DNA of 55,557 nucleotides from Actinomycetota bacterium (GCA_005888295.1 VAWP01000110.1:1-55557); one strand, 5' to 3'; shown: positions 21,601 through 45,021, counted from the first letter of the stretch. The notes: generated by a model from the sequence alone, not told the origin. A program made the numbers and translations.

Positions 21601-21701
21601 ATTGCGTCGAAAGCGGCGACGCCAGGCTCGGTGAGGGAGCGGCACCCGTCGCTGGCCGCCAGTTCTTACGAAATGGCGGCCGGCCGAGATGTCGCTCCCT
21701 C
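21601..21701. repeat. Palindromic repeat family 1, copy A (inverted relative to copies B-E)
   Basis: The reverse complement reads GAGGGAGCGACATCTCGGCCGGCCGCCATTTCGTAAGAACTGGCGGCCAGCGACGGGTGCCGCTCCCTC plus the tail ACCGAGCCTGGCGTCGCCGCTTTCGAC. It has the same terminal arms, GAGGGAGCG/CGCTCCCTC, and the same TTTCGT.AGAAC loop as the other copies. Confidence 0.8.
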
Positions 21702-21736
21702 TGGCCCCGTACGGGGTGAGGCCGGAGACTTGCTCG

Positions 21737-21806
21737 GTTCCACATCTTGTCGAAAGGGGGCGCCGCGCCTGCAGCCGCCTCGCCCACTTTCGACCAGATG
21801 TGGAAC
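21737..21806. repeat. Long hairpin with 20-nt arms
   Basis: GTTCCACATCTTGTCGAAAG ..30 nt.. CTTTCGACCAGATGTGGAAC, with one mismatch, in the glmM-glmS spacer. Confidence 0.75.
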
Positions 21807-21875
21807 AGGGGTAGTTCCCCACGCGGCCCGGCCGGGGGCGAAAGTCCCGGCACGAAACGGCCAATGCCACAAGCT

Positions 21876-21935
21876 GATCCGGTCGGCGTGTCGGCCCGGA
21901 TTTCGACGAACCGGGCCGAGACGCCGGGCCGGATC
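21876..21935. repeat. Palindromic repeat family 2, copy 1 (candidate glmM terminator)
   Basis: GATCCGGTCGGCGTGTCGGCCCGG-ATTTCGACGAA-CCGGGCCGAGACGCCGGGCCGGATC, 19 nt after the glmM stop. Closely matches the reverse complement of 42356..42415. Confidence 0.75.
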
Positions 21936-21953
21936 GCCTGCGTGCCCCCCGCC

Positions 21954-23333
21954 TCAGCCGTCTCCGAGGTGGCGGCGAACGGCGGTGCACAGGCGGTCGG
22001 CGGCGGCGCGCGCCGCCTCGAGGCTCTGGGCCTCGACCATGACCCGCACGACGGGCCCGGTGCCGCTGGCCCGGAGCAGCACCCGGCCGGAGCGGCCCAG
22101 CTCGGCCTCGACGGCCGCCACCTCGTCCCAGACGGCGCCGGCCGTCTCCAGCCGGCCGGGGTCGGGGACGGCCAGGCTGACGAGCTCCTGCGGCAGGCGG
22201 GTCATCGCCTCGGCCGCCAGTGCAGCAAGCGGCCGGGCGCGACGGCGAAGCAGGTCGAGGAGCTGGAGCCCCGTCAGTATCCCGTCGCCGGTGGTGGCGA
22301 GACGACGGAAGATGATGTGCCCCGACTGCTCGCCACCGAGAACGAACCCACCCTCCTCGATGGCCTCCAGCACGTGGCGGTCGCCCACCTTGGTCTGACG
22401 CACCTGGATACCTTTTGCTTGGAGGGCTTGCAGCATCCCGAGGTTGGTCATCACGGTCACCACCACGGTGTCCGAGGCGAGCAGACCGCGTTCGTGGAGA
22501 TCAGTGGCGAACATGGCCATGAGGTGGTCACCGTCGACCAGGGCTCCGGTGTGGTCGACGGCGAGCATGCGATCGGCGTCGCCATCGAAGGCCAACCCCA
22601 CGTCGGCGCCCGCCTCGACCACGGCGCGCTGCAACCCCTCGGGGTGGGTCGAGCCGCAGCCGTCGTTGATGTTGGTGCCGTCGGGCGCGGCGGCCATCAC
22701 CTGCACGACGGCGCCCAGCCGCTCGAGGACCGACGGAGCGACATGGCTCGCTGCGCCGCTGGCGCAGTCCAGCACGCAGCGGATGCCGTCGAGCCGCCGG
22801 CCCTCCAGGCAGGTGACGAGGTGGTCGCCGTACGCGTCGATCGCAGCTGGGTCCGAGTAGATGCTGCCCACCGAGCCTCCCACGACCGGCTTGACGCCGG
22901 CCGCCGACTGGGACGCGGCGATCGCCGACCCGACGCCCTCGCCGACGAGACGACCGAGCTCAGCCTCCAGGGCCCGTTCGACCGGGTCGGACAGCTTGAC
23001 CCCGCCCGCGGCGAAGAGCTTGATGCCGTTGTCGGGAAACGGATTGTGCGAGGCCGAGATCACGGCCGCCGGGGTGTCTCTCGTCGCCGAGAGCCACGCC
23101 ACGCCGGGGGTGGGGATGACACCGGCGTCGGCCACGCTCACACCCTCACTGGCGAGCCCGGCAGCCAGCGCCGCCTGCAGGAGGGGGCCCGATACGCGCG
23201 TGTCCCGACCCACCACGAACTCCCGGCCAGGGACGACGCGAGCCGCCGCCCGTCCGAGAGCGAGGACGAGCTCGGGGCTGAGCTCGTCGTTGGCGACGCC
23301 CCGGAGCCCGTCGGTGCCGAACTTGAGGCTCAA
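21954..23333 (-). CDS. glmM: Phosphoglucosamine mutase
   Basis: 459 aa: MSLKFGTDGLRGVAN.., active-site ISASHNPFPDNGIK, FDGDADR, GGEQSGH. Confidence 0.92.
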   Translation of the reverse strand: MSLKFGTDGLRGVANDELSPELVLALGRAAARVVPGREFVVGRDTRVSGPLLQAALAAGLASEGVSVADAGVIPTPGVAWLSATRDTPAAVISASHNPFPDNGIKLFAAGGVKLSDPVERALEAELGRLVGEGVGSAIAASQSAAGVKPVVGGSVGSIYSDPAAIDAYGDHLVTCLEGRRLDGIRCVLDCASGAASHVAPSVLERLGAVVQVMAAAPDGTNINDGCGSTHPEGLQRAVVEAGADVGLAFDGDADRMLAVDHTGALVDGDHLMAMFATDLHERGLLASDTVVVTVMTNLGMLQALQAKGIQVRQTKVGDRHVLEAIEEGGFVLGGEQSGHIIFRRLATTGDGILTGLQLLDLLRRRARPLAALAAEAMTRLPQELVSLAVPDPGRLETAGAVWDEVAAVEAELGRSGRVLLRASGTGPVVRVMVEAQSLEAARAAADRLCTAVRRHLGDG

Positions 23334-23339
23334 GCGGCG

Positions 23340-23732
23340 CTACCGCTTCGAGTACTGGGGCGCCTTGCGGGCCTTCTTGAGGCCGTACTTCTTGCTCTCC
23401 TTCTCCCTCGCGTCGCGGGTCAAGAACCCCGCCCGCTTGAGGGGGACACGCAGGTCACTGTCCAGCTCCGCCAGGCCTCGGGCGATCCCGAGGCGGAGGG
23501 CCCCGGCCTGGCCCGACGTACCTCCGCCGCCGATGGTCGCCTCGATGTCGTAGGAGTCCACGGCGGTCGCCAGTCGCAGCGGCTCGGTGGCGATCATCCG
23601 ATGGGTCGCCGACGGGAAGTACTCCTCGATGGGACGCCGGTTGATCGTGATGGTGCCGCCGCCGGAACGGAAACGAACCCGCGCCACCGCCGCTTTGCGG
23701 CGACCTGTGGTCTTGATGAGGGGTTGGGGCAT
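23340..23732 (-). CDS. rpsI: 30S ribosomal protein S9
   Basis: 130 aa: ..[48 protein letters not shown]. Confidence 0.95.
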
Positions 23733-23743
23733 GCTGGCGCTCC

Positions 23744-24196
23744 TCAGGCCGGGTGGGACCGCGCATCCTCCAGCGGCAGGGGCTGGGGGTCCTGGGCGGT
23801 GTGCGGATGTTCGGGGCCGGCGTAGACCTTGAGCTTCTTCAGCGTGCGTCGGCCGAGGGGACCCTTGGGCAGCATCCCCCGCACCGCCCGGCGAACGGTC
23901 TCCTCGGGCCGGGTGGCCAACAGCTCCGCGTAGGTACGGCTCGTCAGGCTCCCCGGGTAGCCGCTGTGGCGGTAGTAGAGCTTCTTGTCGGCCTTGTCGG
24001 CGGTCATCACGACCTTGGCCGCGTTGACGACGACCACGTGGTCACCCATGTCGACGTGCGGCGCGAAGACGGGCTTGTGCTTGCCCCGCAGGACCCGCGC
24101 CACCTCGGAGCACATGCGCCCGAGCACGAGGCCGTCCGCATCGACCACGTACCAGGCGCGGTCGACGTCGCTGGGCTTTGGAGAGAACGTACGCAC
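23744..24196 (-). CDS. rplM: 50S ribosomal protein L13
   Basis: 150 aa from GTG 24196: [43 protein letters not shown]. Confidence 0.93.
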
Positions 24197-24318
24197 AGAG
24201 AGCTCTTTCAGGGACACAGGCCGCGCCAATCCGGCGCCCGGGCCGACCTAGAAGGATAGATCGCCGGTCCGGGACCGGCAAACGGGGGTTCGACGACGAG
24301 CAGTAGGCTGACGCCGGC

Positions 24319-25446
24319 GTGATCGACCTCCGCGACATCGAGGACGCCCGGGCGACGATCGGGCCGGTCCTGCGGGTGACGCCGGTGACCCATTCCCATT
24401 CGCTCTCGGGGCTGGCCGGACGCGACGTCCTGCTCAAGGGCGAGCAGCTCCAGAGGACCGGCTCGTTCAAGATCCGTGGGGCCCGCAACTTCGTGGCCCA
24501 CCTGGAGGAAGCGGGCTCGGGGAGACCGGAGGTGGTTGCGGCCTCGGCCGGGAACCACGCCCAGGGCGTGGCCCTGGCGGCCCGTCTGTCCGGCCTACCG
24601 GCCACCATCTTCATGCCCGCCAACGCCGCCCTGCCCAAGGTCGAGGCGACACGGTCCTACGGCGCGACCGTACTGCTCGAGGGCGCCGTCGTCGACGACG
24701 CCATGGCCGCCGCTCGCGATCACGCCGACCGGACCGGTGCCGTGCTGGTGCCACCGTTCGACGACCCACTGGTCGTGGCCGGGCAGGGCACCGTCGGCCT
24801 CGAGCTGGCCGAGCAGGCGCCACGGGCCACGGCGGTGGCCGTACCCGTGGGCGGCGGCGGGCTGCTCGCCGGCGTGGCCACGGCCCTGGCCACCACCCGG
24901 CCCGAGGTGAAGGTCGTCGGCGTCGAGGCCGCGGGGGCGGCGGCCATGCGGGCATCGCTCGACGCCGGGCGGTGCGTGACGCTCGACAGCGTGGCGACGA
25001 TGGCGGACGGCATCGCCGTGCGCTGTGTGTCCGATCTGACGCTCGCCCACGCCCAGGCCTACGTGCACGACGTGGTCACGGTGACCGAAGAAGAGATCAG
25101 TCAGGCCCTGCTGCTGCTGGCGGAACGGGCCAAGGTCGTTGTCGAGCCGGCCGGGGCGGTGGGCCTGGCGGCCATCCTCGCCGGTCGGGTGCCTGGTACG
25201 GGCCCCGCCCTGGCGGTGCTGTCGGGAGGCAATGTCGACCCGCCGGGCGCCCTGGCCGCCCTCACCGACGCAGTGGCCAAGATGCGGCTCAACGTGCTGT
25301 CGGTCGAGCATCACAGGGCCGGCCTCGAGCTCGGCGTGGACGAGGTCGAGGTCCTGCTGACCGTGGAAACGCGCGATCCGTCCCACCGCCACGAGGTGGT
25401 TCGCACCCTGCGGGATCAGGGGTTCAACGTCGAGCTAGCGCGGTGA
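24319..25446 (+). CDS. Threonine ammonia-lyase (PLP fold type II with a short ACT-like tail), lacking an internal block
   Basis: 375 aa: PLP lysine in GSFKIRGA, ASAGNHAQGVA, GGGGLLAG. After LSGGNVDP the sequence jumps straight to PGALAAL.., so about 27-28 residues of the ACT-like domain are absent. Confidence 0.8.
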   Translation: MIDLRDIEDARATIGPVLRVTPVTHSHSLSGLAGRDVLLKGEQLQRTGSFKIRGARNFVAHLEEAGSGRPEVVAASAGNHAQGVALAARLSGLPATIFMPANAALPKVEATRSYGATVLLEGAVVDDAMAAARDHADRTGAVLVPPFDDPLVVAGQGTVGLELAEQAPRATAVAVPVGGGGLLAGVATALATTRPEVKVVGVEAAGAAAMRASLDAGRCVTLDSVATMADGIAVRCVSDLTLAHAQAYVHDVVTVTEEEISQALLLLAERAKVVVEPAGAVGLAAILAGRVPGTGPALAVLSGGNVDPPGALAALTDAVAKMRLNVLSVEHHRAGLELGVDEVEVLLTVETRDPSHRHEVVRTLRDQGFNVELAR

Positions 25447-26274
25447 CGCGCCGTCTTCCGGATAGGTGACCGCCCACAGGCACAGGCCGTGCGGGGGTGC
25501 CGGAGATCCGGCCAGGGCGCGATCACCCGACCGCAGCACCCAGGACAGGTCGCCGGCCCGCTTGCGGCCACGTCCCACCTCGACCAGCGTGCCGACGACA
25601 GAGCGGACCATCTGGTGGCAGAACGCGGTGGCCGCCATCTCGAAGCGCAGCACGTCGCCCTCGCCCAGGCCGCCGTGGCCTCGGGTCCAGCGGGCGTCGA
25701 CGACGCGCCGCACCAGCGAGCCGCCGTCGGGAGGGCGACGGCAGAAGGTCGAGAAGGCGTGCTCTCCGAGCAGGGGATCGCTGGCCTGCTCCATGGCCCG
25801 AAGGTCGAGGGGGTCCTCGACGTGCCAGGCCGTGGTGGCGAGGAAGGGATCCGGTGTCGGCGAGTTGAGCACGCTGTAGCGATAGCGGCGCGAGACGGCC
25901 GAGCGGCGGGCGTCGAAGCCAACCGGAGCCACCGCCGCCTCCCGGACGACGATGGCCGGGGCCAGCATGGCGTTGCACGATCGCACGAGGGCCTCGAGGT
26001 CGAGCCTCCCGCGCGCCGGCGCCAGGTCGGCGTGGACCACCTGGCCCCACGCGTGGACCCCCGAGTCGGTCCGTCCGGCGCAGGTCAGGCTGACCGCGTG
26101 GCCCACCACCTTCTCGATGGCCTCCGCCAGGGTCCCGCCCACGGTGGTCTGGCCGGGCTGGGCGGCGAAGCCGTGGAAGCCGGTGCCGTCGTAGGCGACG
26201 GTGAGGCGGACCCGCACACGTCCCCCCGGCTCCGAGGGCCCGGTGGTCGGTTCGTCGGGCCCGAAGAGTGTCAA
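25435..26274 (-). CDS. truA: tRNA pseudouridine(38-40) synthase
   Basis: 279 aa: [13 protein letters not shown], catalytic [17 protein letters not shown]. Its 3' end overlaps the convergent dehydratase gene by 12 nt. Confidence 0.9.
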
Positions 26275-26624
26275 ACGAGCTCGATACGGGCCATGGGGGC
26301 GTTGTCCCCATGGCGCGGCCCGAGCTTGAGGATGCGGGTGTAGCCCCCAGGGCGGTCGGAGTAGCGGGGCGCGATCTCCTCGAACAGCTTGTTGGCCATG
26401 TCCTTGTCCCTGATGAGGGCCACGACCTGACGCTGGTTGTGGACGCCCCCCTTGCGGGCCTTGGTGATGACCTTCTCGACCACGGGTCGCATGGCCTTGG
26501 CCTTGGACTCGGTGGTCACCAGCGCCTCGGCGGCCACCAGCGACGCCACGAGGTTGCCCAGCATGGCCTTCTGGTGGGCGGCGTCGCCACCGAGCCGTCG
26601 ACCCTTGGTCGGGGTGCCCTGCAC
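26271..26624 (-). CDS. rplQ: 50S ribosomal protein L17
   Basis: 117 aa from GTG 26624 (AAGGAGGAG upstream): [45 protein letters not shown]. Confidence 0.93.
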
Positions 26625-26625
26625 C

Positions 26626-27567
26626 TCACTCCTCCTTGGTGCGCAGCGACAGGCCCCGCTCGTCGAGACGCTGGATGACCTCGTCGAGGGACTTCTGGCC
26701 GAAGTTGGTGATGGCGAGCAGGTCGTCATGCGTGCGCTCGACGAGCTCGCCGATGCTGTTGACCTGCGCCCGCTTCAGGCAGTTGCGGGGCCGCTCGGAC
26801 AGATCGAGGTCCTCGATGGGAAGGTCGAGGTCGGGCGAGCCGCTCGTCATCGTGCTGACGTCGCCGAGCTCGAGACCCTGGGGATGGTCGCTCATGTCCG
26901 CCACCAGGCCGACCAGGGACCGTAGGGTCTCACCGGCCGAGGCCAGGGCGTCCCGTGGCGAAATCGAACCGTCGGTCTCGACGTCGAGGACGAGCAGGTC
27001 GAAGTTGGTCGACTGCTCGACGCGGGTGGGCTCGATCGTGAACGCGACCCGCCGGACGGGCGAGAAGATCGAGTCCACCGGGATGATGCCGATGGTCGAG
27101 GTGCGCTTGTTGAGCTCGGCCGAGACGTAGCCGCGGCCACGCTCGACGGTCACGTCCATGGCCAGCCGACCCTTGGGATCCAACGTGGCCAGCGTCAGCT
27201 CGGGGTTCAGCACCTCGACGTCGGCCGGGGTCTGCAGGTCTCCCGCGGTGACCGGGGCCGGACCGCGCACGTCCAGACGGAGCGTGACGGGCTCGTCCGA
27301 CTCGACCCGGAGGACGATGTCCTTCAGGTTGAGGATGATGTCGGTCACGTCCTCCTTGACGCCGGGAAGCGTGGTGAACTCGTGGAGGGCGTCATCGAAG
27401 CGAACCTGGGTGACCGCCGCTCCCGGGATCGACGAGAGCAGGGTCCGCCGCAGCGTATTGCCCATGGTGTGGCCGAACCCCGGCTCGAGGGGTCCGATGG
27501 CGAAGCGCTGGCGACCGTTCTCCTCCTCGCCGAGCGGCTCCACGGTGGGGCGTTGGATGATGAGCAT
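26626..27567 (-). CDS. rpoA: DNA-directed RNA polymerase alpha subunit
   Basis: 313 aa: [35 protein letters not shown]..; C-terminal domain [17 protein letters not shown]. Confidence 0.95.
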
Positions 27568-27597
27568 GGCGACACTGGCTCCTTGACGCTGGTGCTG

Positions 27598-28224
27598 CTA
27601 CTTGGAGTACAGCTCGATGATGAGCTGCTCTCGCACGGGCACGTCGATGTGCTCCCTCTCGGGCAGGCTCCGCACGGTGACCTGGAGGCCGCCAGCCTCG
27701 GCCTCCAGCCAGGGTGGGACCTGCCGGTCCAGGGTGTCGACGTTGTGACGGATGATGATGAGCTGGCGGGACTTCTCGACCAGGGCCACGACATCGCCCT
27801 GGCGCACCCGGTAGCTGGGGATGGTGACCCGCTTGCCGTTGACCTGCACGTGCCCGTGGCGGACGAGCTGGCGGGCCTGGGACCTGCTGGCGCCCCAGCC
27901 GGCGCGGTAGGCGACGTTGTCGAGGCGCAGCTCGAGCATGCGCAGGAGGTTCTCGCCGGTGATGCCCGACTGGTGCGTCGCCTGCTCGTAGAGGTTGACG
28001 AACTGCTTCTCGAGCACGCCGTAGATGCGGCGGGCCTTCTGCTTCTCACGCAGCTGGGCCAGGTACTCGGAGCCCTGGCGGACGCGATCACGCCCGTGCT
28101 CGCCAGGGGGGTAGGGCCGTCGCTCGATGGGGCACTTCATCGAGTCGCACTTGGCGCCCTTCAGGAACAACTTCATCTTCTCCCGGCGGCACAGACGGCA
28201 GACGGGGCCGGTGTATCGGGCCAT
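27598..28224 (-). CDS. rpsD: 30S ribosomal protein S4
   Basis: 208 aa: MARYTGPVCRLCRREKMKLFLKG.KC... Confidence 0.95.
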   Translation of the reverse strand: MARYTGPVCRLCRREKMKLFLKGAKCDSMKCPIERRPYPPGEHGRDRVRQGSEYLAQLREKQKARRIYGVLEKQFVNLYEQATHQSGITGENLLRMLELRLDNVAYRAGWGASRSQARQLVRHGHVQVNGKRVTIPSYRVRQGDVVALVEKSRQLIIIRHNVDTLDRQVPPWLEAEAGGLQVTVRSLPEREHIDVPVREQLIIELYSK

Positions 28225-28278
28225 GGGGTGCGGTGCTCTCCTCCTACCTCTGTCCGTTCCTGTCGACCTCGGCGCGGG

Positions 28279-28677
28279 TCACACCCGCCGCCGCTTCTTG
28301 GGTCGGCAGCCGTTGTGGGGGATCGGGGTGACGTCCTTGATCCCGGACACCTCGATGCCGGTGTTGGTGAGGGACCGGATGGCGGTCTCCCGCCCCGACC
28401 CCGGGCCCTTCACCAGCACGTCGACCTTGCGCACTCCGTGCTCCATGGCCCGGCGGGCGCAGGCCTCGGCGGCCAGCTGGGCCGCGAAGGGCGTCGACTT
28501 GCGGGATCCCTTGAAGCCGACGTTGCCCGCCGACGCCCAGGCCAGGACGTTGCCTTCGGGATCGGTGATCGACACGATCGTATTGTTGAACGAGCTCTTG
28601 ATGTGGGCCACGCCGTAGGCGATGTTCTTGCGCTCGCGGCGGCGGGGGCGCCGCCCTCCTGGCTTGGGCTTGGGCAT
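28279..28677 (-). CDS. rpsK: 30S ribosomal protein S11
   Basis: 132 aa from the internal Met: [52 protein letters not shown]. Confidence 0.95.
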
Positions 28678-28678
28678 G

Positions 28679-29059
28679 TCAGTGCTTGCGAACCTTCTTC
28701 TTTCCGGCGACGGTCTTCTTGGGTCCCTTGCGGGTGCGGGCGTTGGTATGGGTGCGCTGGCCGTTGACCGGCAGCCCGCGGCGGTGACGGACGCCCTGGT
28801 AGGAGCCGATCTCCATCTTGCGCTTGATGTCCTGGGCGACATCTCGGCGCAGGTCGCCCTCCACCTTGAGGTTGGAGTCCACCCACGACCGCAGGCGACC
28901 GACCTCCTCGTCGGTGAGGTCCCGGACCCGGGTGTCGCTGGCGATCCCGGTGGCCTCGCAGACGTTGTGGGCGGCGGTCCGGCCCATGCCGTAGATGTAG
29001 GTGAGGGAGACCTCCAGCCGCTTCTCCCTGGGGATGTCCACTCCGGCGATGCGCGCCAT
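28679..29059 (-). CDS. rpsM: 30S ribosomal protein S13
   Basis: 126 aa: [26 protein letters not shown]... Confidence 0.95.
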
Positions 29060-29061
29060 CG

Positions 29062-29175: not shown

Positions 29176-29182
29176 TTCCTGC

Positions 29183-30340: not shown

Positions 30341-30350
30341 CCCCGCGGTC

Positions 30351-36741: not shown

Positions 36742-37007
36742 GACTCTTCCTCTGCCGTGGCGGACGCAGCCGACGTGGTCGGCACGGTCGCAGCCGCCTC
36801 GATGGCCTCGGCGGCGGCGATCTCCTGCTCGCGCAGGATGGTCTTGATCCGGGCCACGTCCCGCCGGACCTGGCGAATACGGCTCACGTTGTCGAGCTGT
36901 CCGGTCACGACCTGGAAGCGCAGGTTGAACAGCTCGCGCTTGGCCTCCGCCAGGCGGGACTCCAGCTCGTCGACGTCGAGCTCGCGCAGCTCGGTGGGAG
37001 TCGCCAT
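36738..37007 (-). CDS. rpmC: 50S ribosomal protein L29 with Ala-rich tail
   Basis: 89 aa: [56 protein letters not shown]. Confidence 0.92.
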
Positions 37008-37441
37008 CACAGCTCGCCCCCGCTCGTATCCAGTCCCGACCGCAGCACGAAGCGGGCCTTGATGGGCAGCTTCTGGATGGCCCGCTCCATGGCCGCCTTG
37101 CCCAGGTCCTCGTTCACACCGGCGAGCTCGAAGAGGATGCGGCCGGGCTTGACGACGGCCACCCAGTGCTCGGGGTTCCCCTTCCCCGAGCCCATGCGGG
37201 TCTCGGCGGGCTTCTGGCTCACCGGCTTGTCCGGGAAGATGCGGATCCACACCTTGCCGCCACGGCGGACGTGACGGGTCATGGCGATCCGGGCCGCCTC
37301 GATCTGGCGGGCGGTGATCCATCCGGGCTCGAGGGCCTGGATCCCGTAGTCGCCGAAACGCACCACGGTGCCACCCTTGGCGACGCCGGTGAGCCGACCG
37401 CGCTGCTGCTTGCGGTGCTTGACCTTGCGAGGCATGAGCAT
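37007..37441 (-). CDS. rplP: 50S ribosomal protein L16
   Basis: 144 aa: [25 protein letters not shown]... Confidence 0.95.
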
Positions 37442-37443
37442 GC

Positions 37444-38433
37444 TCAGTCCGACTCCTTGCGGAAGTGCGGCGCCTCGTGATGCTGCTCGCGGGTGCGGCG
37501 CTCGATCTCCTCTTCCTCGGCCAGCAGTCGCTCGAGGTCGTCGTCCACGGGGGGCTCCGTCACTGTCGGCTCGGCCGCCGCCTGACCGTCCACCGCGCCG
37601 TCCGCCTCGGCACCGGCCTCGGCGGCCTCGACCGCTTCGGCCGCCTCAGCGGCCTCGCCATCGGCGGCCGTGCCCGGCTCGCCGAGCTCGGGACGACGCC
37701 GTCCTCCGCCGGCCGAGATGACCCGGCGGGGACGCCCCTGCCCCGACGTCTCGCCGACGGCCATGGCGGCTTCCCTGCTGATCTTCTCCTCGAGGGAGGT
37801 GCGGTAGGGCAGGATGTCGCCCTTGTAGATCCAGACCTTGACGCCGATGCGACCAAAGGTGGTGCGCGCCTCCCGGAAGCCGTAGTCGATGTCCGCTCGC
37901 AGCGTGTGCAGCGGCACCCGTCCCTCGCGGTAGTGCTCCTTGCGAGCCATCTCCGACCCACCCAGCCGTCCGGTGCACTGGACCCGGATGCCCTGGCCGC
38001 CGGCCTTCTGCACCGTCTGGAGGGCGCGCTTCATGGCCCGGCGAAAGCTGATCCGCCGAGCCAGCTGGTCGGCGATGCCCTGGGCGATCAGGGCGGCGTC
38101 GAGCTCCGGCTGCTTGATCTCCTGGATGTTGAGCTGGACCTTCGGGTTGTGCGTGATCTTGGCCAGGTCGCTGCGCAGACGGTCGGCCTCCGCTCCTCGC
38201 CGGCCGATGACGATCCCAGGCCGGGCCGTGTGGAGGTCGATGCGCAACCGATCGCGGGTGCGCTCGACCTCGATGCGGCTCACCGCCGCCGCCTCGAGCT
38301 GGGTCATCAGGTAGTCACGGATCTTCCAGTCCTCCACCACCGAGTCCTGGTAGTGCCGATCGTCGAACCACCGCGACTTCCAGTCCGTGGTGACCCCCAG
38401 CCGGAACCCGTACGGGTTGACCTTCTGGCCCAT
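37444..38433 (-). CDS. rpsC: 30S ribosomal protein S3 with long acidic/Ala-rich C-terminal tail
   Basis: 329 aa: [23 protein letters not shown].. (KH domain), followed by a tail of about 100 aa, ..[21 protein letters not shown]... Confidence 0.93.
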
Positions 38434-39210
38434 CTAGTCCCTCTTCTCTTTCCTGGCCCGCGTCCGCCGCTTCGGCGTGGGCTCCTCGTGTTGTTGTTCG
38501 TCTGTTTCCGCCTCTGCTGCCTCGGCCTCAGCGGCCTCGTGAGCCTCCGCAGCCGGTTCCGCGTCAGCACCACCCTCAGCTTCTTCTTCCTCCGACTCGG
38601 GGGTGGGCTCAGAGGGAGCGGCATCGCCGCTGGCGCCCGTTTCGTCAGAACGGGGGCCAGTGACGGGTGCCGCTTCCTCACCCACGTCCGGCGCGCCAGC
38701 TTTCTCAGCCGCTTCCGGCACGGCAGCCGCCGCTTCTTCCGCCGCCTGAGAGGCCGCGACCCGTTGTCGACGGGCACCGGCCACCCGGCGGGCGCGGCGG
38801 GCGCCGGCGTCGCCGGTGTCCCTGGCCCGGCGGCGAGCGAGACGCTCGTCCGGCAGGCGGGTCACCACCACGGTGATGTGGGACGTGCGCTTGCGGATGC
38901 GGGTCGCCCGGCCCCGGGCTCGTGGCCGCCAGCGCTTCATGGTGGTGGCCTCGTCGGCGTAGCAGGCCGACACGTACAGCTCGTCGGCAGACTGGGCGTC
39001 GTTGTTCTCGGCGTTGGCCACGGCCGATGCCAGCAGCTTGGAGACCACCCGCGCCGCGTCGCGCTCGGAGAAGCGCAGGATGTCTTGGGCGTCCTCGAGG
39101 TCGCGACCGCGGATGAGGTCGAGCACGGGGCGGACCTTGAACGCCGACATGCGGCAGTAGCGGAGGACGGCGCGGGTCCCGAGCGCCTCGTCCATCCGGG
39201 TGGCGGCCAT
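38434..39210 (-). CDS. rplV: 50S ribosomal protein L22 with a C-terminal extension of about 130 aa
   Basis: 258 aa: an L22 core (..RMSAFKVRPVLDLIRGRDLEDA..RPRARGRATRIRKRTSHITVVV) followed by a basic then acidic tail. The tail contains repeat copy B read in frame (..[18 protein letters not shown]..). Confidence 0.9.
   Translation of the reverse strand: MAATRMDEALGTRAVLRYCRMSAFKVRPVLDLIRGRDLEDAQDILRFSERDAARVVSKLLASAVANAENNDAQSADELYVSACYADEATTMKRWRPRARGRATRIRKRTSHITVVVTRLPDERLARRRARDTGDAGARRARRVAGARRQRVAASQAAEEAAAAVPEAAEKAGAPDVGEEAAPVTGPRSDETGASGDAAPSEPTPESEEEEAEGGADAEPAAEAHEAAEAEAAEAETDEQQHEEPTPKRRTRARKEKRD
38612..38703. repeat. Palindromic repeat family 1, copy B (inside the rplV coding tail)
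   Basis: GAGGGAGCGGCATCGCCGCTGGCGCCCGTTTCGTCAGAACGGGGGCCAGTGACGGGTGCCGCTTCCTC plus tail ACCCACGTCCGGCGCGCCAGCTTTC. Confidence 0.8.
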
Positions 39211-39212
39211 GG

Positions 39213-39491
39213 CTAGCGTCTCCCCGCCCGTTCCTGTCCGGCGTGGTACCGGAAGGTGCGTGTCGGGGCGAACTCCCCGAGCTTGTGACCGACCATCGAC
39301 TCGGTGATGTACACGGGCACGTGCTTGCGCCCGTCGTGGACGGCGATGGTGTGTCCGACCATGTCGGGAATGATCGTGGACCGGCGCGACCAGGTCTTGA
39401 TCACCCGCTTCTCGTTGCGGCTGTTCAGCGCGTCGACCCTGCGGAGCAGGTGGTCGTCCACGAACGGACCCTTCTTCAGGCTGCGGGGCAC
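39213..39491 (-). CDS. rpsS: 30S ribosomal protein S19
   Basis: 92 aa: [42 protein letters not shown]. Confidence 0.95.
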
Positions 39492-39507
39492 GTCGGGCCC
39501 TCCTGCC

Positions 39508-40344
39508 TCAGCGCCGGGCGCCGCGCTTGCGGCGCCGGCGGACGATCAGTTTGTCGGATTCCTTGTGACGGGCCCGAGTGCGGCCCTCCTTCTTCCCCCA
39601 CGGCGACACCGGATGCCGCCCACCGCTGGCCTTGCCCTCGCCGCCGCCGAGCGGGTGGTCGACCGGGTTCATGGCCACGCCACGGGTCTGGGGGCGGACG
39701 CCCTTCCACCGGTTGCGACCTGCCTTGCCCCCCGACACCAGCTCGGCCTCGAAGTTGCCGACCTGGCCGAGGGTTCCCCGGCAGTCGATCGGCACCCGCC
39801 GCATCTCGGTCGAGGGCAGCCTGAGGGTGGCGAAGGACCCCTCCTTGGCCACCAGCTGCACGCTCATCCCGGCACCGCGCGCGAGCTTGCCCCCCGCACC
39901 CGGCCGCAGCTCGACGTTGTGCACGACCGAGCCCACCGGGATGTACCGCAGCGGCAGGGCGTTGCCGGGACGGATCTCGGCTCCCTGGCCGCTCTGGAGC
40001 AGGTCCCCGACCTCGACGCGGGCGGGCGCCAGGATGTAGCGCTTCTCGCCGTCGAGATAGTGGAGCAGGGCGATGCGGGCGTTGCGGTTGGGGTCGTACT
40101 CGATCGCCGCCACCTTGGCCGGCACCCGGTCCTTGTCCCGCTTGAAGTCGATGACCCGGTAGCGCTGCTTGTGCCCACCGCCGCGGTGGCGAGCCGTCTT
40201 GCGTCCGTAGGTGTTGCGTCCGCCGGTGCCGGGCTTGGGCACCACGAGGGACCGCTCGGGACGGTCGCGTGTGATCTCGGCGAAGTCCGAGACGGTCTGG
40301 AACCTGCGGCCGGGGCTGGTCGGCTTGCGTTTGCGGAGTGGCAT
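39508..40344 (-). CDS. rplB: 50S ribosomal protein L2
   Basis: 278 aa from ATG 40344: [38 protein letters not shown]. The ORF-track extension to 40788 is readthrough. Confidence 0.95.
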
Positions 40345-40352
40345 CGTCGTCC

Positions 40353-40643
40353 CTAGCTCTCGAACAGGTCGATCTTGTCGCCGGCCGCCAGGGTCACCAC
40401 GGCTCGCTTGGTGTCGATGCGCTGTCCGTAGGCCCCGGTGCGCCGGTTGCGCTTGCGCTTGCCCTTGCGGTTGAGGGTGTTCACCTTGCTGACACGTACG
40501 CCGAAGACGGACTCGACGGCCTTGCGGATCTCCACCTTCGTGGCCCTGGGGTCGACGACGAACGTGTACACGTTCGAGTCCAGCAGCGCGTACGACTTCT
40601 CCGACACCACGGGCTTGATGATCACGTCCCTGACGTCCTTCAT
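40353..40643 (-). CDS. rplW: 50S ribosomal protein L23
   Basis: 96 aa: [39 protein letters not shown]. Confidence 0.94.
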
Positions 40644-41407
40644 CAGCCCTCACCCCCGTCGCCAGCTTCCCCGGCGTCGGTCCCGCTGGAGGTCCCAGAG
40701 GGAGCGTCACCTCGACTGGCGCCCGTTTCGTCAGAACGGGTGCCAGTCGAGGGTGCAGCTCCCTCACCGCCCCCTGAGACGCGAGCATTGCCGGGGAGGG
40801 TGGCGTCGGTGAACACCACCCAGTCGTTGCGCAGCACGTCGTAGGTGTTGAGCTCGCCGTCCGACACCAGCTGCACCTGGGGCAGGTTGGCGAAGCTGCG
40901 GGCGGCCACCTCGTCGTCGTCGGCGAGCACCACGAGGACCTTGCCCTCCAGGCCGAGTGCGTCCAGGGCGCTCACGGCGTCCTTGGTGCGGGGCGTGGCG
41001 AAGGGCCACTCCGGCACCACCGCCACCCGGCCCTGGGCGGCCCGGTCGGAAAGGGCCGAGCGCAGGGCCAGCCGCAGCATCTTCTTCGGGGTTCGCTGGC
41101 TGTAGTCGCGCGGCTTGGGCCCGAGAGCCTTTCCGCCGCCGACCCAGTGCGGGGACCTGGTGGAACCGGTGCGAGCCCGGCCCGTCCCCTTCTGGCGATA
41201 GGGCTTGCCCCCACCCCCCCGAGCCTCGGCCCTGGTCAGCGTGCTGTGGGTGCCCGCCCTGGCCTTGGCCAGCTGGGCGGTCACGACCTGGTGCATCACC
41301 GCCACGTTGGGCTCGACGCCGAACACGGCGGGATCGAGCTCCACCGTGCCCTCCTCGTCGCCGTCGGCATTGCGCCTGGCCACGGTGAGGCCCTCGACGA
41401 CGCTCAT
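40643..41407 (-). CDS. rplD: 50S ribosomal protein L4 with a C-terminal extension of about 45 aa
   Basis: 254 aa: an L4 core (..[29 protein letters not shown]..) followed by the tail ..[31 protein letters not shown], which contains repeat copy C in frame. Its stop overlaps the rplW ATG (ATGA). Confidence 0.9.
40698..40792. repeat. Palindromic repeat family 1, copy C (inside the rplD coding tail)
   Basis: GAGGGAGCGTCACCTCGACTGGCGCCCGTTTCGTCAGAACGGGTGCCAGTCGAGGGTGCAGCTCCCTC plus tail ACCGCCCCCTGAGACGCGAGCATTGCC. The 25-nt core CTGGCGCCCGTTTCGTCAGAACGGG is identical to copy B. Confidence 0.8.
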
Positions 41408-42081
41408 GACGCCTGGCCCGCCTGCTCGGTCTGTCGGCCTCCCAGGCCGCCCTTCACCGCCTGGCGGATCAGCACCAGCCCACCCCGGGGGCCCGGCACC
41501 GCTCCCCTGACCATCACCAGCTCGCGCTCGGCATCGGCCTGGACCACCTCGAGGTTGAGCGTCGTCACCCGTTCGGCCCCGAGCTGGCCCGCCATCTTCG
41601 TCCCCTTGAAGACCCGGGCCGGGGTGGCGCAGGCGCCGATCGCTCCGGGCGACCGATGCTTCTTGTGGTTGCCGTGGGACGCGCCCTGACCCTTGAAGTT
41701 GTGACGAGCCATGGCCCCGGCGAAGCCCTTGCCCTTGCTCACCGCCGTCACGTCGACCTTCTCGCCGGCGGCGAGGATGCCGGCGTCGATCTCCTGACCG
41801 ACCGTGTACGCGTTCGAGTCGTCCACCCGCAGCTCGACCAGGCGGCGGCCGGGCTCGACGCCCGCGCTGGAGAAATGGCCTCCCTCGGGCTTGTTGAGGG
41901 TCTTCGCCCGGCGCAGTCCGTAGGTGACCTGGACGGCCGCGTAGCCGTCACGCTCGGGCGTCTTGACCTGCACGACCCGCATGGGGGCGACCTTGACCAG
42001 GGTCACGGGAACGGCGCGGTTGCGCTCGTCCCAGACCTGGGTCATGCCGACCTTCTCGCCGACGATCGCCTTGGATGCCAT
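41404..42081 (-). CDS. rplC: 50S ribosomal protein L3
   Basis: 225 aa from ATG 42081: [37 protein letters not shown]. The ORF-track extension to 42297 is readthrough. Confidence 0.95.
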
Positions 42082-42355
42082 CTGTGGGCCTGCTGCCTCT
42101 CTGTGCCGTGAAGTACGGTCCGAACCTCTGGTGTGGAGCGGGGCGACCGGTCGACCGCCCTGCACGCGGACGCTCCGCCTGGGCGGACCCGGGCGGAGCG
42201 CTGTCTGAGTTGTGCCGTGGGGTCCCCTCCAGCGATCGGGCTCCCACGGACCTATCGATGTGCGTACCCACCGGGCCGGACGACCCGGGCCAACCACTAT
42301 ATCCCAGCCGCAGGCCTCGGATTTTCTGGTCTTTCGCCCTCAGATCGCAGCGGGC

Positions 42356-42415
42356 GATCCGGCTCGGCGCATCGTCCCGGTTCTTCGAAATCCGGGCCGA
42401 TGCACCGACCGGATC
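42356..42415. repeat. Palindromic repeat family 2, copy 2 (inverted relative to 21876..21935)
   Basis: GATCCGGCTCGGCGCATCGTCCCGG-TTCTTCGAAAT-CCGGGCCGATGCACCGACCGGATC. Its reverse complement aligns along its whole length with 21876..21935. Confidence 0.75.
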
Positions 42416-42532
42416 ACCTCGTGCCTTCAGGCGCCTCTGCTGGAGCCTCGACCTCGCCCGCTCGCTGGCGGAGAGAAAGAGAGGAGGTGGCTGCTGGCTC
42501 CTGCTGTTCGCTCGCCCTCGCTGGTGGGCTCG

Positions 42533-42626
42533 GAGGGAGCGGCACCGCCGGTGGTCGCCCTTGCGTCAGAAGGGCGGCCAGCGGCGAGTGCCGCTCCCTC
42601 CCCGCCCGACGGCGCGCCAGCTTGCC
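42533..42626. repeat. Palindromic repeat family 1, copy D (intergenic)
   Basis: GAGGGAGCGGCACCGCCGGTGGTCGCCCTTGCGTCAGAAGGGCGGCCAGCGGCGAGTGCCGCTCCCTC plus tail CCCGCCCGACGGCGCGCCAGCTTGCC. Confidence 0.8.
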
Positions 42627-42655
42627 GCACGGTCGTTCAGACTCCGCAGGATCGG

Positions 42656-43312
42656 TCATCGACGCGTGAAGGTCAGGTGGGTGACGCCGCTCGGTGACGA
42701 GACCGCCTCGATGTCGTAGCGCTCCTCGATGCCTTCGAGGCCGTCCCACAGGCGAACGCCGCGGCCGAGCAGGATCGGCACCTGCACCACGTGGAGCGTG
42801 TCGATCAGTTCGGCGGCCAGGAAGTCGCGGACCATCGTCGGGCCGCCGCCGATGCGCACGTCGAGGTCGCCAGCTGCGTCCCGGGCGAGGTCGAGCGCCG
42901 CCTGCGGGCTGGCGTCGACGAAGTGGAACACCGTGCCGCCCTCCATCTCGATCGACGGGCGGGGGTGGTGCGTGAGCACGAACACCGGCGTGTGGAACGG
43001 CGGGTTCGGCCCCCACCAGCCGCGCCACTCGTCGTCGGTCCCGACATCGGTCCACGGGCCGGTCTGCGCGCTGAACTTGCCGCGGCCCATGATCTCGGCA
43101 CCGAAGCCATGGCCATGGCGCTCGGCGAACGAGTGGTCGACCCCCGACGTCCCACCGGTACCGCCGAACATCGAGCGCCCGAACCGGGTGGCGAACATCC
43201 ACTCGTGGAGACGATGGCCGGCGTGACCGAACGGCGCCTCGAACGTGATGCCGTCGCCGGTCCCGAACCCGTCGAGAGAGATCGAGAAGTTGTGGACACG
43301 AACCTGGGACAT
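42656..43312 (-). CDS. Dihydrofolate reductase-like (RibD C-terminal domain) family protein
   Basis: 218 aa from ATG 43312 (GGAGG 5 nt upstream): MSQVRVHNFSISLDGFGTG..VRIGGGPTMVRDFLAAELIDTLHVVQVPILLGRGVRLWD. Divergent from hxlR. Confidence 0.8.
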   Translation of the reverse strand: MSQVRVHNFSISLDGFGTGDGITFEAPFGHAGHRLHEWMFATRFGRSMFGGTGGTSGVDHSFAERHGHGFGAEIMGRGKFSAQTGPWTDVGTDDEWRGWWGPNPPFHTPVFVLTHHPRPSIEMEGGTVFHFVDASPQAALDLARDAAGDLDVRIGGGPTMVRDFLAAELIDTLHVVQVPILLGRGVRLWDGLEGIEERYDIEAVSSPSGVTHLTFTRR

Positions 43313-43335
43313 GGCTGCCTCCGAGCTAGGGGTGG

Positions 43336-43348
43336 TTGCGATGTGCAA
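43336..43348. promoter_or_regulatory. Candidate operator palindrome TTGC-N5-GCAA (site 1)
   Basis: TTGCGATGTGCAA, in the 93-bp divergent spacer between the reductase gene and hxlR. Confidence 0.35.
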
Positions 43349-43375
43349 CTGGTTGCGTTAATGTAGCCAAGGCAG

Positions 43376-43388
43376 TTGCTGATTGCAA
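43376..43388. promoter_or_regulatory. Candidate operator palindrome TTGC-N5-GCAA (site 2)
   Basis: TTGCTGATTGCAA, 40 bp from site 1 and 18 nt upstream of the hxlR ATG. Confidence 0.35.
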
Positions 43389-43405
43389 GCACTTTGGAGG
43401 AACGC

Positions 43406-43909
43406 ATGGACACCGCCCCCCGCTCGGGATGCGCGATCAACGCGGCCGTCGAGGTGCTCGGCGACCCGTGGGCCATGCTCGTGCTGCGCGACATCATGTT
43501 CGGCAACCGCCGCCATTTCCGCGAGCTGGTCGCCGGCTCCGAGGAGGGCATCGCCACCAACATCCTCGCCAGCCGCCTCAAGCAGCTCGTGGCCGCAGGG
43601 CTGTTGACTCGCGACGACGCCGGCCGTGGGCAACGGGCGGCCTACTCGCTCACCGAGGCGGGCATCCAGGTGCTCCCGGTCATGGTCGCCCTCGGGAACT
43701 GGGGCCTCGCCCACCGCCAAGGCGAGCGCCGACTACGGGTGCGCGCCGAACTGCTCCGCGACGGGGGCCCCGAGCTCGTGGCCGCGATGATCGACGAGCT
43801 GCGCGAGCTCCACCTCGGCGTGCCGCGCCCCGACCCGGGCGCACCGCGTGCGAGCGATCAGCTACGTGCCGCCTACGAGGCCGCGCTGCTCGACAACGCG
43901 AGCAGATGA
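43406..43909 (+). CDS. HxlR-family winged-helix transcriptional regulator
   Basis: MDTAPRSGCAINAAVEVLGDPWAMLVLRDIMFGNRRHFRELV..GIATNILASRLKQLV.AGLL. GGAGGA lies 5 nt before ATG 43406. The track start at 43376 lies inside the palindrome. Confidence 0.8.
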   Translation: MDTAPRSGCAINAAVEVLGDPWAMLVLRDIMFGNRRHFRELVAGSEEGIATNILASRLKQLVAAGLLTRDDAGRGQRAAYSLTEAGIQVLPVMVALGNWGLAHRQGERRLRVRAELLRDGGPELVAAMIDELRELHLGVPRPDPGAPRASDQLRAAYEAALLDNASR

Positions 43910-44083
43910 GGTCCGCTTCGGATGCCAACTCGACCCAGCTCCTCATCAAGGGCGCTGAGTGCCTCCAAGAGGTCGTCTCGGTTGAGAAGAGGCATCAGGC
44001 GTAGGTCAGCGCATCCTCAGCCCTCGCGCGGGAGCGCCGAACGCCGACTGGCATGACTCGGTTCGTGACGGTGTGCTGAGTCC

Positions 44084-44641
44084 TCAACGGAGGACTCGGT
44101 AGTGAAGGTGGGTGACGCCGCCATCGCCTTCGAGAACTCTGGTCCGCTCCAGCTCGCGGAGTTCGATGCCGAGGCGCTCGAACAACCGCCGGCCCTCGCC
44201 GAACAGGACCGGGACCAGGGCCCCGTGGACGAGCACGTTCTTGTCGCCCGACGCGTACCTGGCGTCCCGGACTGCCGCGCCGAGGTTGCTGACGTAGTGG
44301 ACGGCGGGCCAATTGGCCGCCCAGTCCGGTGCTGGGTTGCGGCTGAGGATGTAGATGGGCACACCGTCGTGGTGGTCACCACCCCAGCCGCCGGCGCCTT
44401 CGAAGGTCCCCCGTCCGGCGATGACTGCGCCTGTCGACATGATCTCGTCGTAGATCTGGCGGTTCACAGTGCCGCCCCCTAGCTGATGGGCTGCGGCCTT
44501 GTGATGCTGCTCGGTGGTGACAGGAAAGAGCCACTCGTGCAGCCGCTGCCCTCCGTCGCCGAGCGGGTTGTCGAGGCTCGCGTTGGGTCCGGTGATGAGG
44601 CCGTCGAGGGACATCGACATGTACAGCACAGTCGAGGACAT
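44084..44641 (-). CDS. Dihydrofolate reductase-like (RibD C-terminal domain) family protein, internally shortened
   Basis: 185 aa: MSSTVLYMSMSLDGLITGPN... Compared with the paralog at 42656..43312, about 19 residues are missing between NVLVHGA and LVPVLFGEGRRLF. The GAGTCCTC-AACG-GAGGACTC hairpin (44078..44097) spans the stop codon. Confidence 0.75.
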   Translation of the reverse strand: MSSTVLYMSMSLDGLITGPNASLDNPLGDGGQRLHEWLFPVTTEQHHKAAAHQLGGGTVNRQIYDEIMSTGAVIAGRGTFEGAGGWGGDHHDGVPIYILSRNPAPDWAANWPAVHYVSNLGAAVRDARYASGDKNVLVHGALVPVLFGEGRRLFERLGIELRELERTRVLEGDGGVTHLHYRVLR

Positions 44642-44927
44642 CGCTTTCGCTCCTGGTGCTGATTCGACTCGCTGATTCGACTCGCAGGGGGTAGACGGAC
44701 GGGCAGCACTGAATTCATCGCCGAGGTCCCCGGTGACACGCGCTCTCTTCAGGGCGTGCTCGTGGCGCGTGTGACGGACAGGCGTACGGCACGAACCGCC
44801 GGCTGTCCAGCACCCCTCATCCGCCAGGGTGATGTCACGGATTGACCGTCAGGACGGCCTTCGGGTGGGAGCGCCCAACGCCGACATGGCGTGATATGTG
44901 CTGCCGGAGCCCCGCTCGTAGGGCCAA

Positions 44928-45021
44928 GAGGGAGCGTCGCCTCGGCTAGCCCCCCATTTCGTAGAACTGGGGGCTAGCCGAGAGTGACGCTCCCTCCCGC
45001 CCTACGGCGCGCCAGCTTGGC
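44928..45021. repeat. Palindromic repeat family 1, copy E (immediately after the rpsJ stop)
   Basis: GAGGGAGCGTCGCCTCGGCTAGCCCCCCATTTCGTAGAACTGGGGGCTAGCCGAGAGTGACGCTCCCTC plus tail CCGCCCTACGGCGCGCCAGCTTGGCG. Confidence 0.8.

Follow-up and report, generated by a model that had tools for sequence, protein, structure and literature searches.

A genus-specific palindromic repeat of Acidimicrobiales with a strand-specific fold, mosaic spacers and in-frame copies in ribosomal protein genes

Palindromic repeats at glmM–glmS and in the S10 operon

The window (the whole 55,557-nucleotide stretch of DNA analysed here) contains five copies, A to E, of a palindromic repeat that we call F1, together with two accompanying elements, H3 and P2 (Table 1). 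All five copies given in the original prediction were found, against an expected chance count of 0, with nhmmer E-values of 7.5e-25 to 7.3e-21. The F1 arms are GAGGGAGCG ... CGCTCCCTC, and searching for the exact pattern GAGGGAGCG-N50-80-CGCTCCCTC returned 3 matches, compared to 0.00 expected from 100 shuffles. The gene contexts agree with the Pfam assignments, A lying at glmM–glmS, E after rpsJ, D before rplC, C in rplD and B in rplV. A unit of about 95 bp had been proposed; the repeat stands but its length does not, since the covariance-model limits of copies A to E give ~109 nt, and copy A lies a few bases from where it had been placed. Copies B and C share the identical 25-nt core claimed for them (CTGGCGCCCGTTTCGTCAGAACGGG), and an 18-copy alignment bears out both the loop form (TTTCG-NNA-GAA) and the one-sided tail (...CCGCCC..GGCGCGCCAGC). 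Rfam gave 0 matches at gathering score over the whole window, in line with the view that the element belongs to no named family, and between 21550 and 22000 returned nothing at E<=1 but miRNA-hairpin noise (E 0.09–0.9).

Table 1. Repeat elements and genes discussed in the text, by position in the window
Feature	Position	Strand	Source
P2-type terminal arm, isolated, GTTCCGCATTGCGTCGAAAG; abuts tail of F1 copy A	21594..21612	+	TIR scan
F1 copy A; between glmM stop (21954) and glmS start	21609..21718	- (consensus strand)	
P2 palindrome GTTCCACATCTTGTCGAAAG...CTTTCGACCAGATGTGGAAC; between F1 copy A and H3	21759..21832	no strand	
H3 hairpin; partner of F1 copy A, just 3' of glmM stop	21868..21941	+	
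rplV (L22)	39210-38434	-	Pfam
F1 copy B; in frame in rplV C-terminal extension, residues ~171-205 of 258	38595..38703	+	
rplD (L4)	41407-40643	-	Pfam
F1 copy C; in rplD C-terminal tail, residues ~208-242 of 254, frame as copy B	40681..40789	+	
H3 hairpin; partner of F1 copy D/E; ~270 nt upstream of rplC ATG (42081)	42353..42418	-	
F1 copy D, stem haplotype II; upstream of rplC; 33 nt past RibD_C reductase gene stop	42516..42624	+	
Cassette, 2.3 kb, lineage-specific; between F1 copies D and E	42625..44910	no strand	
RibD_C reductase gene in cassette	43348-42656	-	Pfam
HxlR gene in cassette	43376-43909	+	Pfam
RibD_C-like ORF in cassette, weak match	44641-44084	-	Pfam
F1 copy E, the resident rpsJ–rplC copy; tail begins 4 nt past rpsJ stop (45023)	44911..45019	+	

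The host is a 3.72-Mb Acidimicrobiales MAG from a genus of uncultured, free-living soil actinobacteria. By nhmmer and covariance-model search it holds 19 strong F1 copies dispersed over 12 contigs, and the 14 outside the window are all on other contigs, so that the family recurs genome-wide as had been anticipated. F1 is genus-specific: it is present in 8/8 genomes of the genus, at 3–19 copies each, and in 0/33 other families of the order; viral contigs gave no match to the F1 pattern. Most copies are orthologous between the species of the genus (the rplV copy, for example, has orthologous copies in 5 other genomes), which suggests that activity is rare or old.

F1 as one end of a larger mosaic

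Sixteen of the 19 copies are intergenic or merely clip a stop codon, in both orientations. The tail typically lies 0–35 nt past a stop codon, and F1 is also found between convergent genes. Contact with ribosomal protein genes (rpsJ, rplC, rplD, rplV, rplJ and rplI) is seen for six of the 19.

In most cases F1 forms one end of a larger mosaic, H3-(P2)-F1, which occupies spacers from the stop codon through to the next gene. The outer ends of the mosaic do not form an inverted repeat. H3 is a shorter, inverted hairpin homologous to F1, with 14 copies in the MAG, 12 of them near an F1 copy or remnant, 100–250 nt away and always on the same side. The H3 at 21868..21941 shows 85% complementarity to 42350-42423, and reverse-complementing the H3 loop GTTCTTCGAAAT gives ATTTCGAAGAAC, the F1 loop found in copies C102 and C35b. 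The P2 palindrome is present in ~56 copies and is located between H3 and F1 in 5/10 mosaics.

Gain, loss and a 2.3-kb cassette

Within the genus there have been at least two gains of the mosaic. The glmM–glmS spacer is empty, at 25 nt, in G002, G003 and G007, contains P2 alone in G004 and G005, and carries F1, P2 and H3 in the host MAG. The recA–miaB spacer is empty in four species, holds H3 and F1 in G005, and in G000 holds a left-truncated F1 lacking H3. Both gains are gene-free. No target-site duplication is visible at either site, where the spacers are remodelled and the borders blurred, and both events could be allele replacements by recombination rather than transpositions. Loss by internal deletion is evident from truncated remnants (at C65, C31 and the rplD tail of G002).

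At rpsJ–rplC, the 2.3-kb cassette, which brings its own F1 (copy D), has gone in precisely at the outer border of the F1 already resident there (copy E). The same interval in G005 and G002 has a single F1 and no cassette. The insert, cassette plus D, may be flanked by a 3–5-nt CCC(C) repeat.

Searches for a source of mobility were negative. The MAG has no parent IS, in that no F1/H3 pair is more than ~250 nt apart, nor was a long P2-ended unit with a clear transposase found, nearly all P2 arm pairs being 50–220 nt apart. The Y1/RAYT transposase profile (PF01797) gave 0 matches in the host MAG and none above cut-off in the 8 genus genomes (best 20.9 bits against a cut-off of 23); it matched in 6/14 control genomes.

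One strand of F1 is kept foldable

F1 forms a long imperfect hairpin: a core stem of ~30 bp is capped by an apical UUC-GNNA-GAA, and both the bulge and the tail are conserved and one-sided. An extra G in the right arm is also conserved, and most apical loops are of the form G-N-N-A (GUAA, GUGA, GCAA, GUCA). The window copies fold far better than their shuffles (z = -4.2 to -10.3; matched by 0/200 shuffles for each). The changes between stems had been taken as compensatory, and this is borne out by covariation above both controls: 93.6% of stem cells are paired, against 86.3% after shuffling and 37–49% with the partner slid. Double changes are found at 15 pairs, a value reached by 0/500 shuffles. 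Compensated pairs also separate orthologous copies, with 2–4 in every ortholog set having three or more species. Two or three stem haplotypes, which switch between orthologous sites, account for much of the covariation, a pattern indicative of gene conversion rather than of numerous separate events.

Base pairing in F1 is therefore maintained, and the structural constraint is strand-specific. On the consensus strand G·T cells number 100 and A·C cells only 13, and G·T occurs at 19/25 pair positions, whereas in unpaired columns the same transition classes differ just 1.7-fold; this asymmetry indicates that one particular strand folds. In 46/54 copies the consensus strand gives the more stable fold of the F1 core, with a mean gain of 5.8 kcal/mol, although with the full 109-nt flanks this holds for only 2/5 window copies. 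H3 favours the opposite strand in 13/14 copies. F1 thus offers an unusually clean sign that one defined strand of a repeat has been kept foldable over speciation. Such long-term upkeep exceeds what would be predicted for a purely selfish, decaying repeat.

In-frame copies in ribosomal protein tails

F1 is translated inside rplD and rplV and in a third ribosomal protein gene, rplJ, and the reading frame is the same for L4, L22 and L10 in all species examined. The F1-bearing tails are acidic. Tail length varies across the order, where L4 (213–352 aa) and L22 (mostly 220–270 aa) have long variable tails without F1, and homology between the rplV and rplJ tails ends at the F1 borders. The stop codon of rplD overlaps with the start of rplW (TGATG), and that of rplV lies directly against the rpsC ATG. 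Repeats of this type make L4, L22 and L10 seem longer than they otherwise would.

Relation to known repeat families

In the BIME/REP elements of enterobacteria and the RIME elements of rhizobia, related palindromic units alternate, are joined by short motifs, lie in spacers after stop codons or between convergent genes, and are restricted to a species or genus. We liken the F1 mosaic to these by its architecture, since inverted related units and short motifs share one spacer. Classical REP units are palindromes of ~20–40 nt that bear a conserved GTAG head at the 5' end, occur exclusively outside genes and are present in tens to hundreds of copies. F1 differs in its far longer stems (~30 bp core, ~109 nt in total), in lacking the GTAG head, in its 3–19 copies per genome and in having three copies in ORFs, and the genus has no RAYT gene. 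Membership of the REP/RAYT (REPtron) system is not supported, given the ~109-nt length, the 19 copies, the ORF copies and the absence of a RAYT above cut-off.

The actinobacterial MIRU repeats lie in operons, where reading frames run through them and coupling to the flanking cistrons is kept. F1 resembles MIRU, by description, in the frame that runs through it and in the stop/start coupling at rplD–rplW and rplV–rpsC, but it is a long hairpin whereas MIRU are tandem direct repeats.

For the coding copies the closest parallel that we discuss is the Rickettsia palindromic elements (RPEs), which are ~100–150 bp long and lie either in intergenic DNA or inside ORFs, where they are in frame and contribute a peptide segment whose frame is consistent (PMC10969869). 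F1 is likewise a palindromic repeat found in frame, and consistently so, in rplD, rplV and rplJ. The host phylum is however different and no sequence relation is known, only 3/19 F1 copies are intragenic, and each of these falls in the low-complexity C-terminal tail of a ribosomal protein, not in the body of a metabolic enzyme as for RPEs. In F1, moreover, it is the nucleic-acid fold that is conserved, not the peptide. A free-living bacterium can evidently harbour hairpin repeats in frame within essential ribosomal protein genes, much as Rickettsia harbours RPEs.

Like MITEs and ERIC/IRU elements, F1 is short, non-coding, dispersed, able to form a long hairpin, and polymorphic for presence or absence among related genomes. 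It departs from MITEs in that no same-ended parent IS was found, no target-site duplication is visible at the blurred borders of the two gain sites, and the mobile unit is apparently a mosaic of two hairpins that lacks inverted repeats at its outer ends. The earlier reading as a REP/MITE-like element or structured module is supported as regards repetition and structure; MITE status in the strict sense is not demonstrated, as neither target-site duplication nor transposase was found.

Interpretation

The explanation that we favour, at a probability of about 0.68, is that F1 is a genus-specific interspersed palindromic repeat with BIME/RIME-like architecture and RPE-like in-frame copies, which spreads as non-autonomous DNA and in which the fold of one strand is selected. 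F1 would spread at a low rate, through a trans-acting enzyme, through recombination and gene conversion among copies, or through both. In coupled ribosomal operons, presumably only those insertions survive that leave the frame and the stop/start coupling intact. Purifying selection probably acts on the fold of one defined strand, because a putative protein or process would recognise the folded strand as ssDNA or RNA, and the loop common to F1 and H3 is a likely candidate for the recognition site. Through its strand signature, F1 offers a way of testing in which form, DNA or RNA, 'selfish' palindromes are recognised.

We also considered that F1, with H3, might primarily be a cis-acting RNA structure of the host, its repetition being secondary; it could act as an intercistronic or 3'-end hairpin in mRNA processing or stability, or as a terminator or insulator against opposing transcription. 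The fold is kept across species even in coding sequence whose peptide changes, wobble asymmetry is a classical sign of a folded RNA strand, and most copies have G-N-N-A apical loops. The position of F1 directly past stop codons and between convergent genes, and its enrichment in ribosomal protein operons (6/19), would also fit. Since F1 and H3 lie in inverted orientation and prefer opposite strands, a transcript from either direction would always contain one hairpin in its preferred orientation. However, the strand that F1 prefers runs antisense to the gene immediately upstream at ~9/12 co-directional sites, including the three coding copies, so that the ribosomal protein mRNAs carry the weaker version. 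The asymmetry is equal whatever the direction of the neighbouring gene, which makes it a property of the element rather than of the host transcript. No T/U tract lies 3' of F1: a scan of 37000-46000 for intrinsic terminators gave 5 sites (3.2 expected), none at F1, and no T tract on either strand. Besides the lack of an Rfam match, the module is missing at the same loci in all other families of the order, implying that no conserved host function depends on it. On balance we regard a primary role in host RNA as unlikely.

It is far less likely that F1 is a folded single-strand recombination site, by analogy with attC, at which a putative recombinase moves gene cassettes. The resemblance lies in an imperfect palindrome of attC-like length directly 3' of an ORF, preferential folding of what is, in most cases, the bottom (antisense) strand of this ORF, a conserved one-sided, extrahelical bulge, and a cassette with its own F1 (D) at the edge of the resident one (E) where sister species have one F1 and no cassette. 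Yet F1 has no RYYYAAC/GTTRRRY core boxes (R''/R'), and no integron integrase was found, TIGR02249 staying below cut-off in 8/8 genus genomes (best 68 bits against 265, these matches looking like ordinary XerC/D-type recombinases). The copies are also single, mostly orthologous and beside housekeeping genes rather than in cassette arrays, just one cassette-like event is seen, and two clean gains brought no gene. We would attach equally little weight to a broader version, in which F1 and H3 are the folded sites of an undescribed Acidimicrobiales recombination or transposition system, attC-like but lacking IntI, that moves mosaics and cassettes. If that were true, the RibD_C/HxlR cassette in the S10 operon would be one of its products, and the strand-specific wobble and conserved bulge would mark the recombinogenic strand.

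Finally, that the conserved object is a peptide module of ribosomal protein tails (..GEEAAPxxGxxSDExxAxxxAAPSGP..) and the DNA palindrome incidental, as the single frame in L4, L22 and L10 of all species examined might suggest, is effectively refuted by the intergenic copies in both orientations, and also by residues that vary precisely at the covarying stems while those conserved are encoded by the conserved arms, and by the halt of rplV/rplJ tail homology at the F1 borders.

Spread of F1 as an interspersed, non-autonomous repeat thus remains our preferred reading. Our literature search returned no paper pairing Acidimicrobiales with REP elements, and the F1 mosaic appears to be the first interspersed palindromic mosaic described for this order. 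We note that the long-term, strand-specific upkeep of the fold and the contacts of 6/19 copies with ribosomal protein genes sit less easily with this reading, and that these contacts hint at a role at the level of the host or at a bias towards highly transcribed DNA. F1 repeats also flag hot spots for insertion within the S10 operon, and assemblies are likely to break at them.

F1 is a repeat of about 109 nt found throughout one genus

All five copies named in the original prediction were found in the sequence and were recovered by a five-copy profile with E values from 7.5e-25 to 7.3e-21. The arm pattern GAGGGAGCG-N50-80-CGCTCCCTC has three exact matches in the window and none in 100 shuffles. 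The unit had been put at about 95 nt; the repeat itself stood but its length did not, since the limits set by a covariance model (see table) give a hairpin repeat, here termed F1, of about 109 nt. Iterated nhmmer on the whole assembly (3.72 Mb in 198 contigs, 69.8% G+C) identified 19 strong copies, spread over 12 contigs, and a further one to three that are weak or partial. Using the covariance model, we find F1 in all eight genomes of the genus, at about 3–19 copies each, and in none of 33 other families of the order; among 80 loci encoding L4 relatives, only the four closest carry it. Two contigs of genome G002 (C11 and C21, loci L116 and L117) have identical F1 loci with identical flank matches, which suggests that this bin, for which contamination is given as 8%, holds a duplicated contig.

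As had been proposed, the family could not be assigned to a named one: Rfam gave no match at the gathering score anywhere in the window, and over 21550-22000 nothing at E≤1 beyond miRNA-hairpin noise; a full-text literature search found no repeats of such kind in actinobacteria or Acidimicrobiia. F1 is a newly described repeat within a known class, the bacterial palindromic repeats.

Positions in the window of F1, of the further palindromes H3 and P2, and of the genes adjoining the F1 copies
Feature	Position	Strand	Basis
F1 copy A	21609-21718	- (consensus)	covariance model
F1 copy B	38595-38703		covariance model
F1 copy C	40681-40789		covariance model
F1 copy D	42516-42624		covariance model
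F1 copy E	44911-45019		covariance model
H3 beside copy A	21868-21941
H3 beside copy D	42353-42418
P2	21759-21832
P2, lone arm	21594-21612
rpsJ	45349-45023	-	Pfam
rplC	ATG at 42081, through 41404	-	Pfam
rplD	41407-40643	-	Pfam
rplV	39210-38434	-	Pfam
rpsC	38433-37444	-	Pfam
glmM	23333-21954	-	Pfam
glmS	21540-19663	-	Pfam

F1 copies lie after stop codons and within ribosomal protein genes

Copy E starts 4 nt past the rpsJ stop codon. Copy D is upstream of rplC, 33 nt beyond the stop codon that ends a RibD_C reductase gene, and copy A is flanked by glmM and glmS. Two copies fall within reading frames, C at residues 208-242 of the 254 of rplD and B at residues 171-205 of the 258 of rplV, and encode, in one shared frame, the peptide ..G(P/T)RSDETGAS..; neither frame is interrupted before the stop/start coupling with the following cistron. 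Away from the window, the genome has F1 in a third ribosomal protein gene too, rplJ (L10), again in this frame; similarity between the tails of rplJ and rplV ends at the F1 borders. Among the coding copies the peptide differs at positions where the stems covary. The in-frame habit is like that of the Rickettsia palindromic elements, palindromic repeats that also occur in frame (PMC10969869).

One more copy immediately follows rplI, and each of the others is placed after the stop codon of a housekeeping or metabolic gene, or runs a few bases into it; several lie between convergent genes. Altogether 6 of the 19 copies touch ribosomal protein genes, which by rough arithmetic greatly exceeds the expectation from the ~1.5% share of such genes. 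Across the order, L4 proteins lacking F1 have 213-352 aa and L22 proteins lacking it mostly 220-270 aa, with long and variable tails. Since such tails exist without F1, we conclude that the tails did not arise from the coding copies but received them as tolerated insertions.

The C-terminal extensions of L22 and L4 are also acidic, and they are highly variable order-wide independently of F1 (loci L001-L080). Downstream of rplI (locus L087), dnaB (genome G000, contig C143, 13521-15671, - strand) has an apparent intein-like insertion, a long non-helicase segment that starts ..ESGCMPASTRLL...

F1 is part of a mosaic with H3 and P2

Judged by its alignment (GGCGCCTCGGCCCGG-ATTTCGAAGAAC-CCGGGCCGAGGCGC against GGCGCCTCGGCTGGCCCCC-ATTTCGTAAGAAC-TGGGGGCCAGCCGAGGGTGCC in F1), the hairpin H3 is a shorter relative of F1. 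The two H3 hairpins of the window are 85% complementary to one another. Of the 14 H3 copies in the genome, 12 have an F1 copy or an F1 remnant no more than ~250 nt away, and these 12 are without exception inverted and to the left of F1. A further palindrome, P2 (GTTCCACATCTnGTCGAAAG...), has about 56 copies genome-wide and separates H3 from F1 in 5 of 10 mosaics, an architecture like that of BIME/RIME-type elements. We found no RAYT, no parent IS for P2 and no match to the F1 pattern in viral contigs.

P2 is a repeat in its own right, a palindrome of ~70 nt in which 19-nt arms GTTCCACATCTnGTCGAAA enclose a variable centre. Some arm pairs are ~185-220 nt apart. Of the three families P2 has the most copies, with dozens per genome throughout the genus, and it is often within ~40 nt of F1. 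The mosaics at rplC and rplI, which lack P2, have a purine-rich motif, GAAAGAGAGAGGAG, at ~45-50 nt to the left of F1 (window 42419-42515; L087 about 2420-2510), and this motif is conserved in genomes G005 and G002.

One strand of the hairpin is kept foldable

Each window copy folds far better than its own shuffles (z = -4.2 to -10.3). Pairing was scored on an alignment of 55 rows from the genus, comprising 53 distinct copies and two reverse-strand duplicate matches. Standard pairs fill 93.6% of the pair cells, compared to 86.3% in shuffles and 37-49% when the partner is slid, and both sides have changed at 15 of the 25 pairs, a value reached in none of 500 shuffles. The compensatory stem changes noted at the outset recur among orthologs, with 2-4 compensated pairs in each set that has three or more species. 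Two or three stem haplotypes switch between orthologous sites and account for much of the covariation; we read this switching as exchange between copies, so that the counts overstate the number of compensatory events. A candidate outer helix, GCTGGCG in the left flank with CGCCAGC in the tail, lacks support (54.6% paired against 53.2% in shuffles, in the model-fitted alignment); when folded singly, copies B, D and E do have a longer stem.

More telling than the covariation counts is the asymmetry between G·T and A·C. The consensus strand has 100 G·T but 13 A·C cells, with G·T at 19 of the 25 pair positions. Mutation bias was rejected as the source of this excess, because in unpaired columns these transition classes are only 1.7-fold apart, compared to 7.7-fold in the stems. 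In 46 of 54 copies the consensus strand gives the more stable core fold, with a mean advantage of 5.8 kcal/mol; for the five window copies with full flanks the preference is mixed. H3 favours the opposite strand in 13 of its 14 copies, as expected of an inverted homologue. One defined strand of each hairpin is kept foldable, from which we infer recognition of a folded single strand, DNA or RNA, by a putative factor, probably through the loop common to F1 and H3.

Alternatively, F1 could be chiefly a host RNA element, which we regard as unlikely. The asymmetry is unchanged by the direction of neighbouring genes, and no T tract follows the F1 hairpin. Of 12 co-directional sites, about 9, all three coding copies included, have the preferred strand antisense to the gene; we take this bias of orientation with respect to transcription (about 9 to 3) as a trend and not as a finding.

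Gain, loss and the cassette between copies D and E

Most F1 sites are orthologous throughout the genus. Gain is seen in two spacers. The glmM-glmS spacer has 25 nt and is empty in G002, G003 and G007, holds P2 alone in G004 and G005, and contains F1, P2 and H3 in the studied genome. At recA-miaB, four species have a short, empty spacer, G005 has H3 and F1, and G000 carries a left-truncated F1 without H3. Loss is seen at three sites where only truncated remnants are left (sites C65 and C31 of G000, and the rplD tail of G002, where the rplD ORF is still open).

Between rpsJ and rplC, G005 and G002 each carry just one F1, whose core is that of copy E. The studied genome has an inserted 2.3-kb cassette of two RibD_C-like genes, an HxlR regulator and its own F1, copy D, whose stem haplotype differs from that of copy E; the insertion point coincides exactly with copy E's left edge. 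Only a RibD_C gene of the cassette has relatives elsewhere (70-73%, in G001/G005), with no F1 beside them; the rest is unique, and none of 80 other Acidimicrobiales loci has the cassette. Neither the gain sites (glmM-glmS and recA-miaB) nor the loss sites nor the cassette show an evident target-site duplication. This single cassette event is the basis for viewing F1 as an attC-like recombination site, which is a long shot, as no integron integrase was found and F1 contains no attC boxes.

F1, H3 and P2 are a genus-specific mosaic of palindromic repeats, which would spread rarely while deletion erodes its copies. Overall this supports the first interpretation of the repeat as REP/MITE-like or as a structured module. 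We consider noteworthy the presence of F1 in frame in three ribosomal protein genes, the fixed two-hairpin mosaic and the strand-specific conservation of structure.

In most Acidimicrobiales loci (L001-L080) the rpsJ-rplC spacer has the unusual length of ~220-430 nt, and in about 10 of about 70 loci it holds inserts of 0.7-3.4 kb with differing cargo, so that it resembles a recurrent insertion hot spot in the S10 operon. The spacers of two outgroup loci, L077 and L080, are short (-10 and 47 nt).
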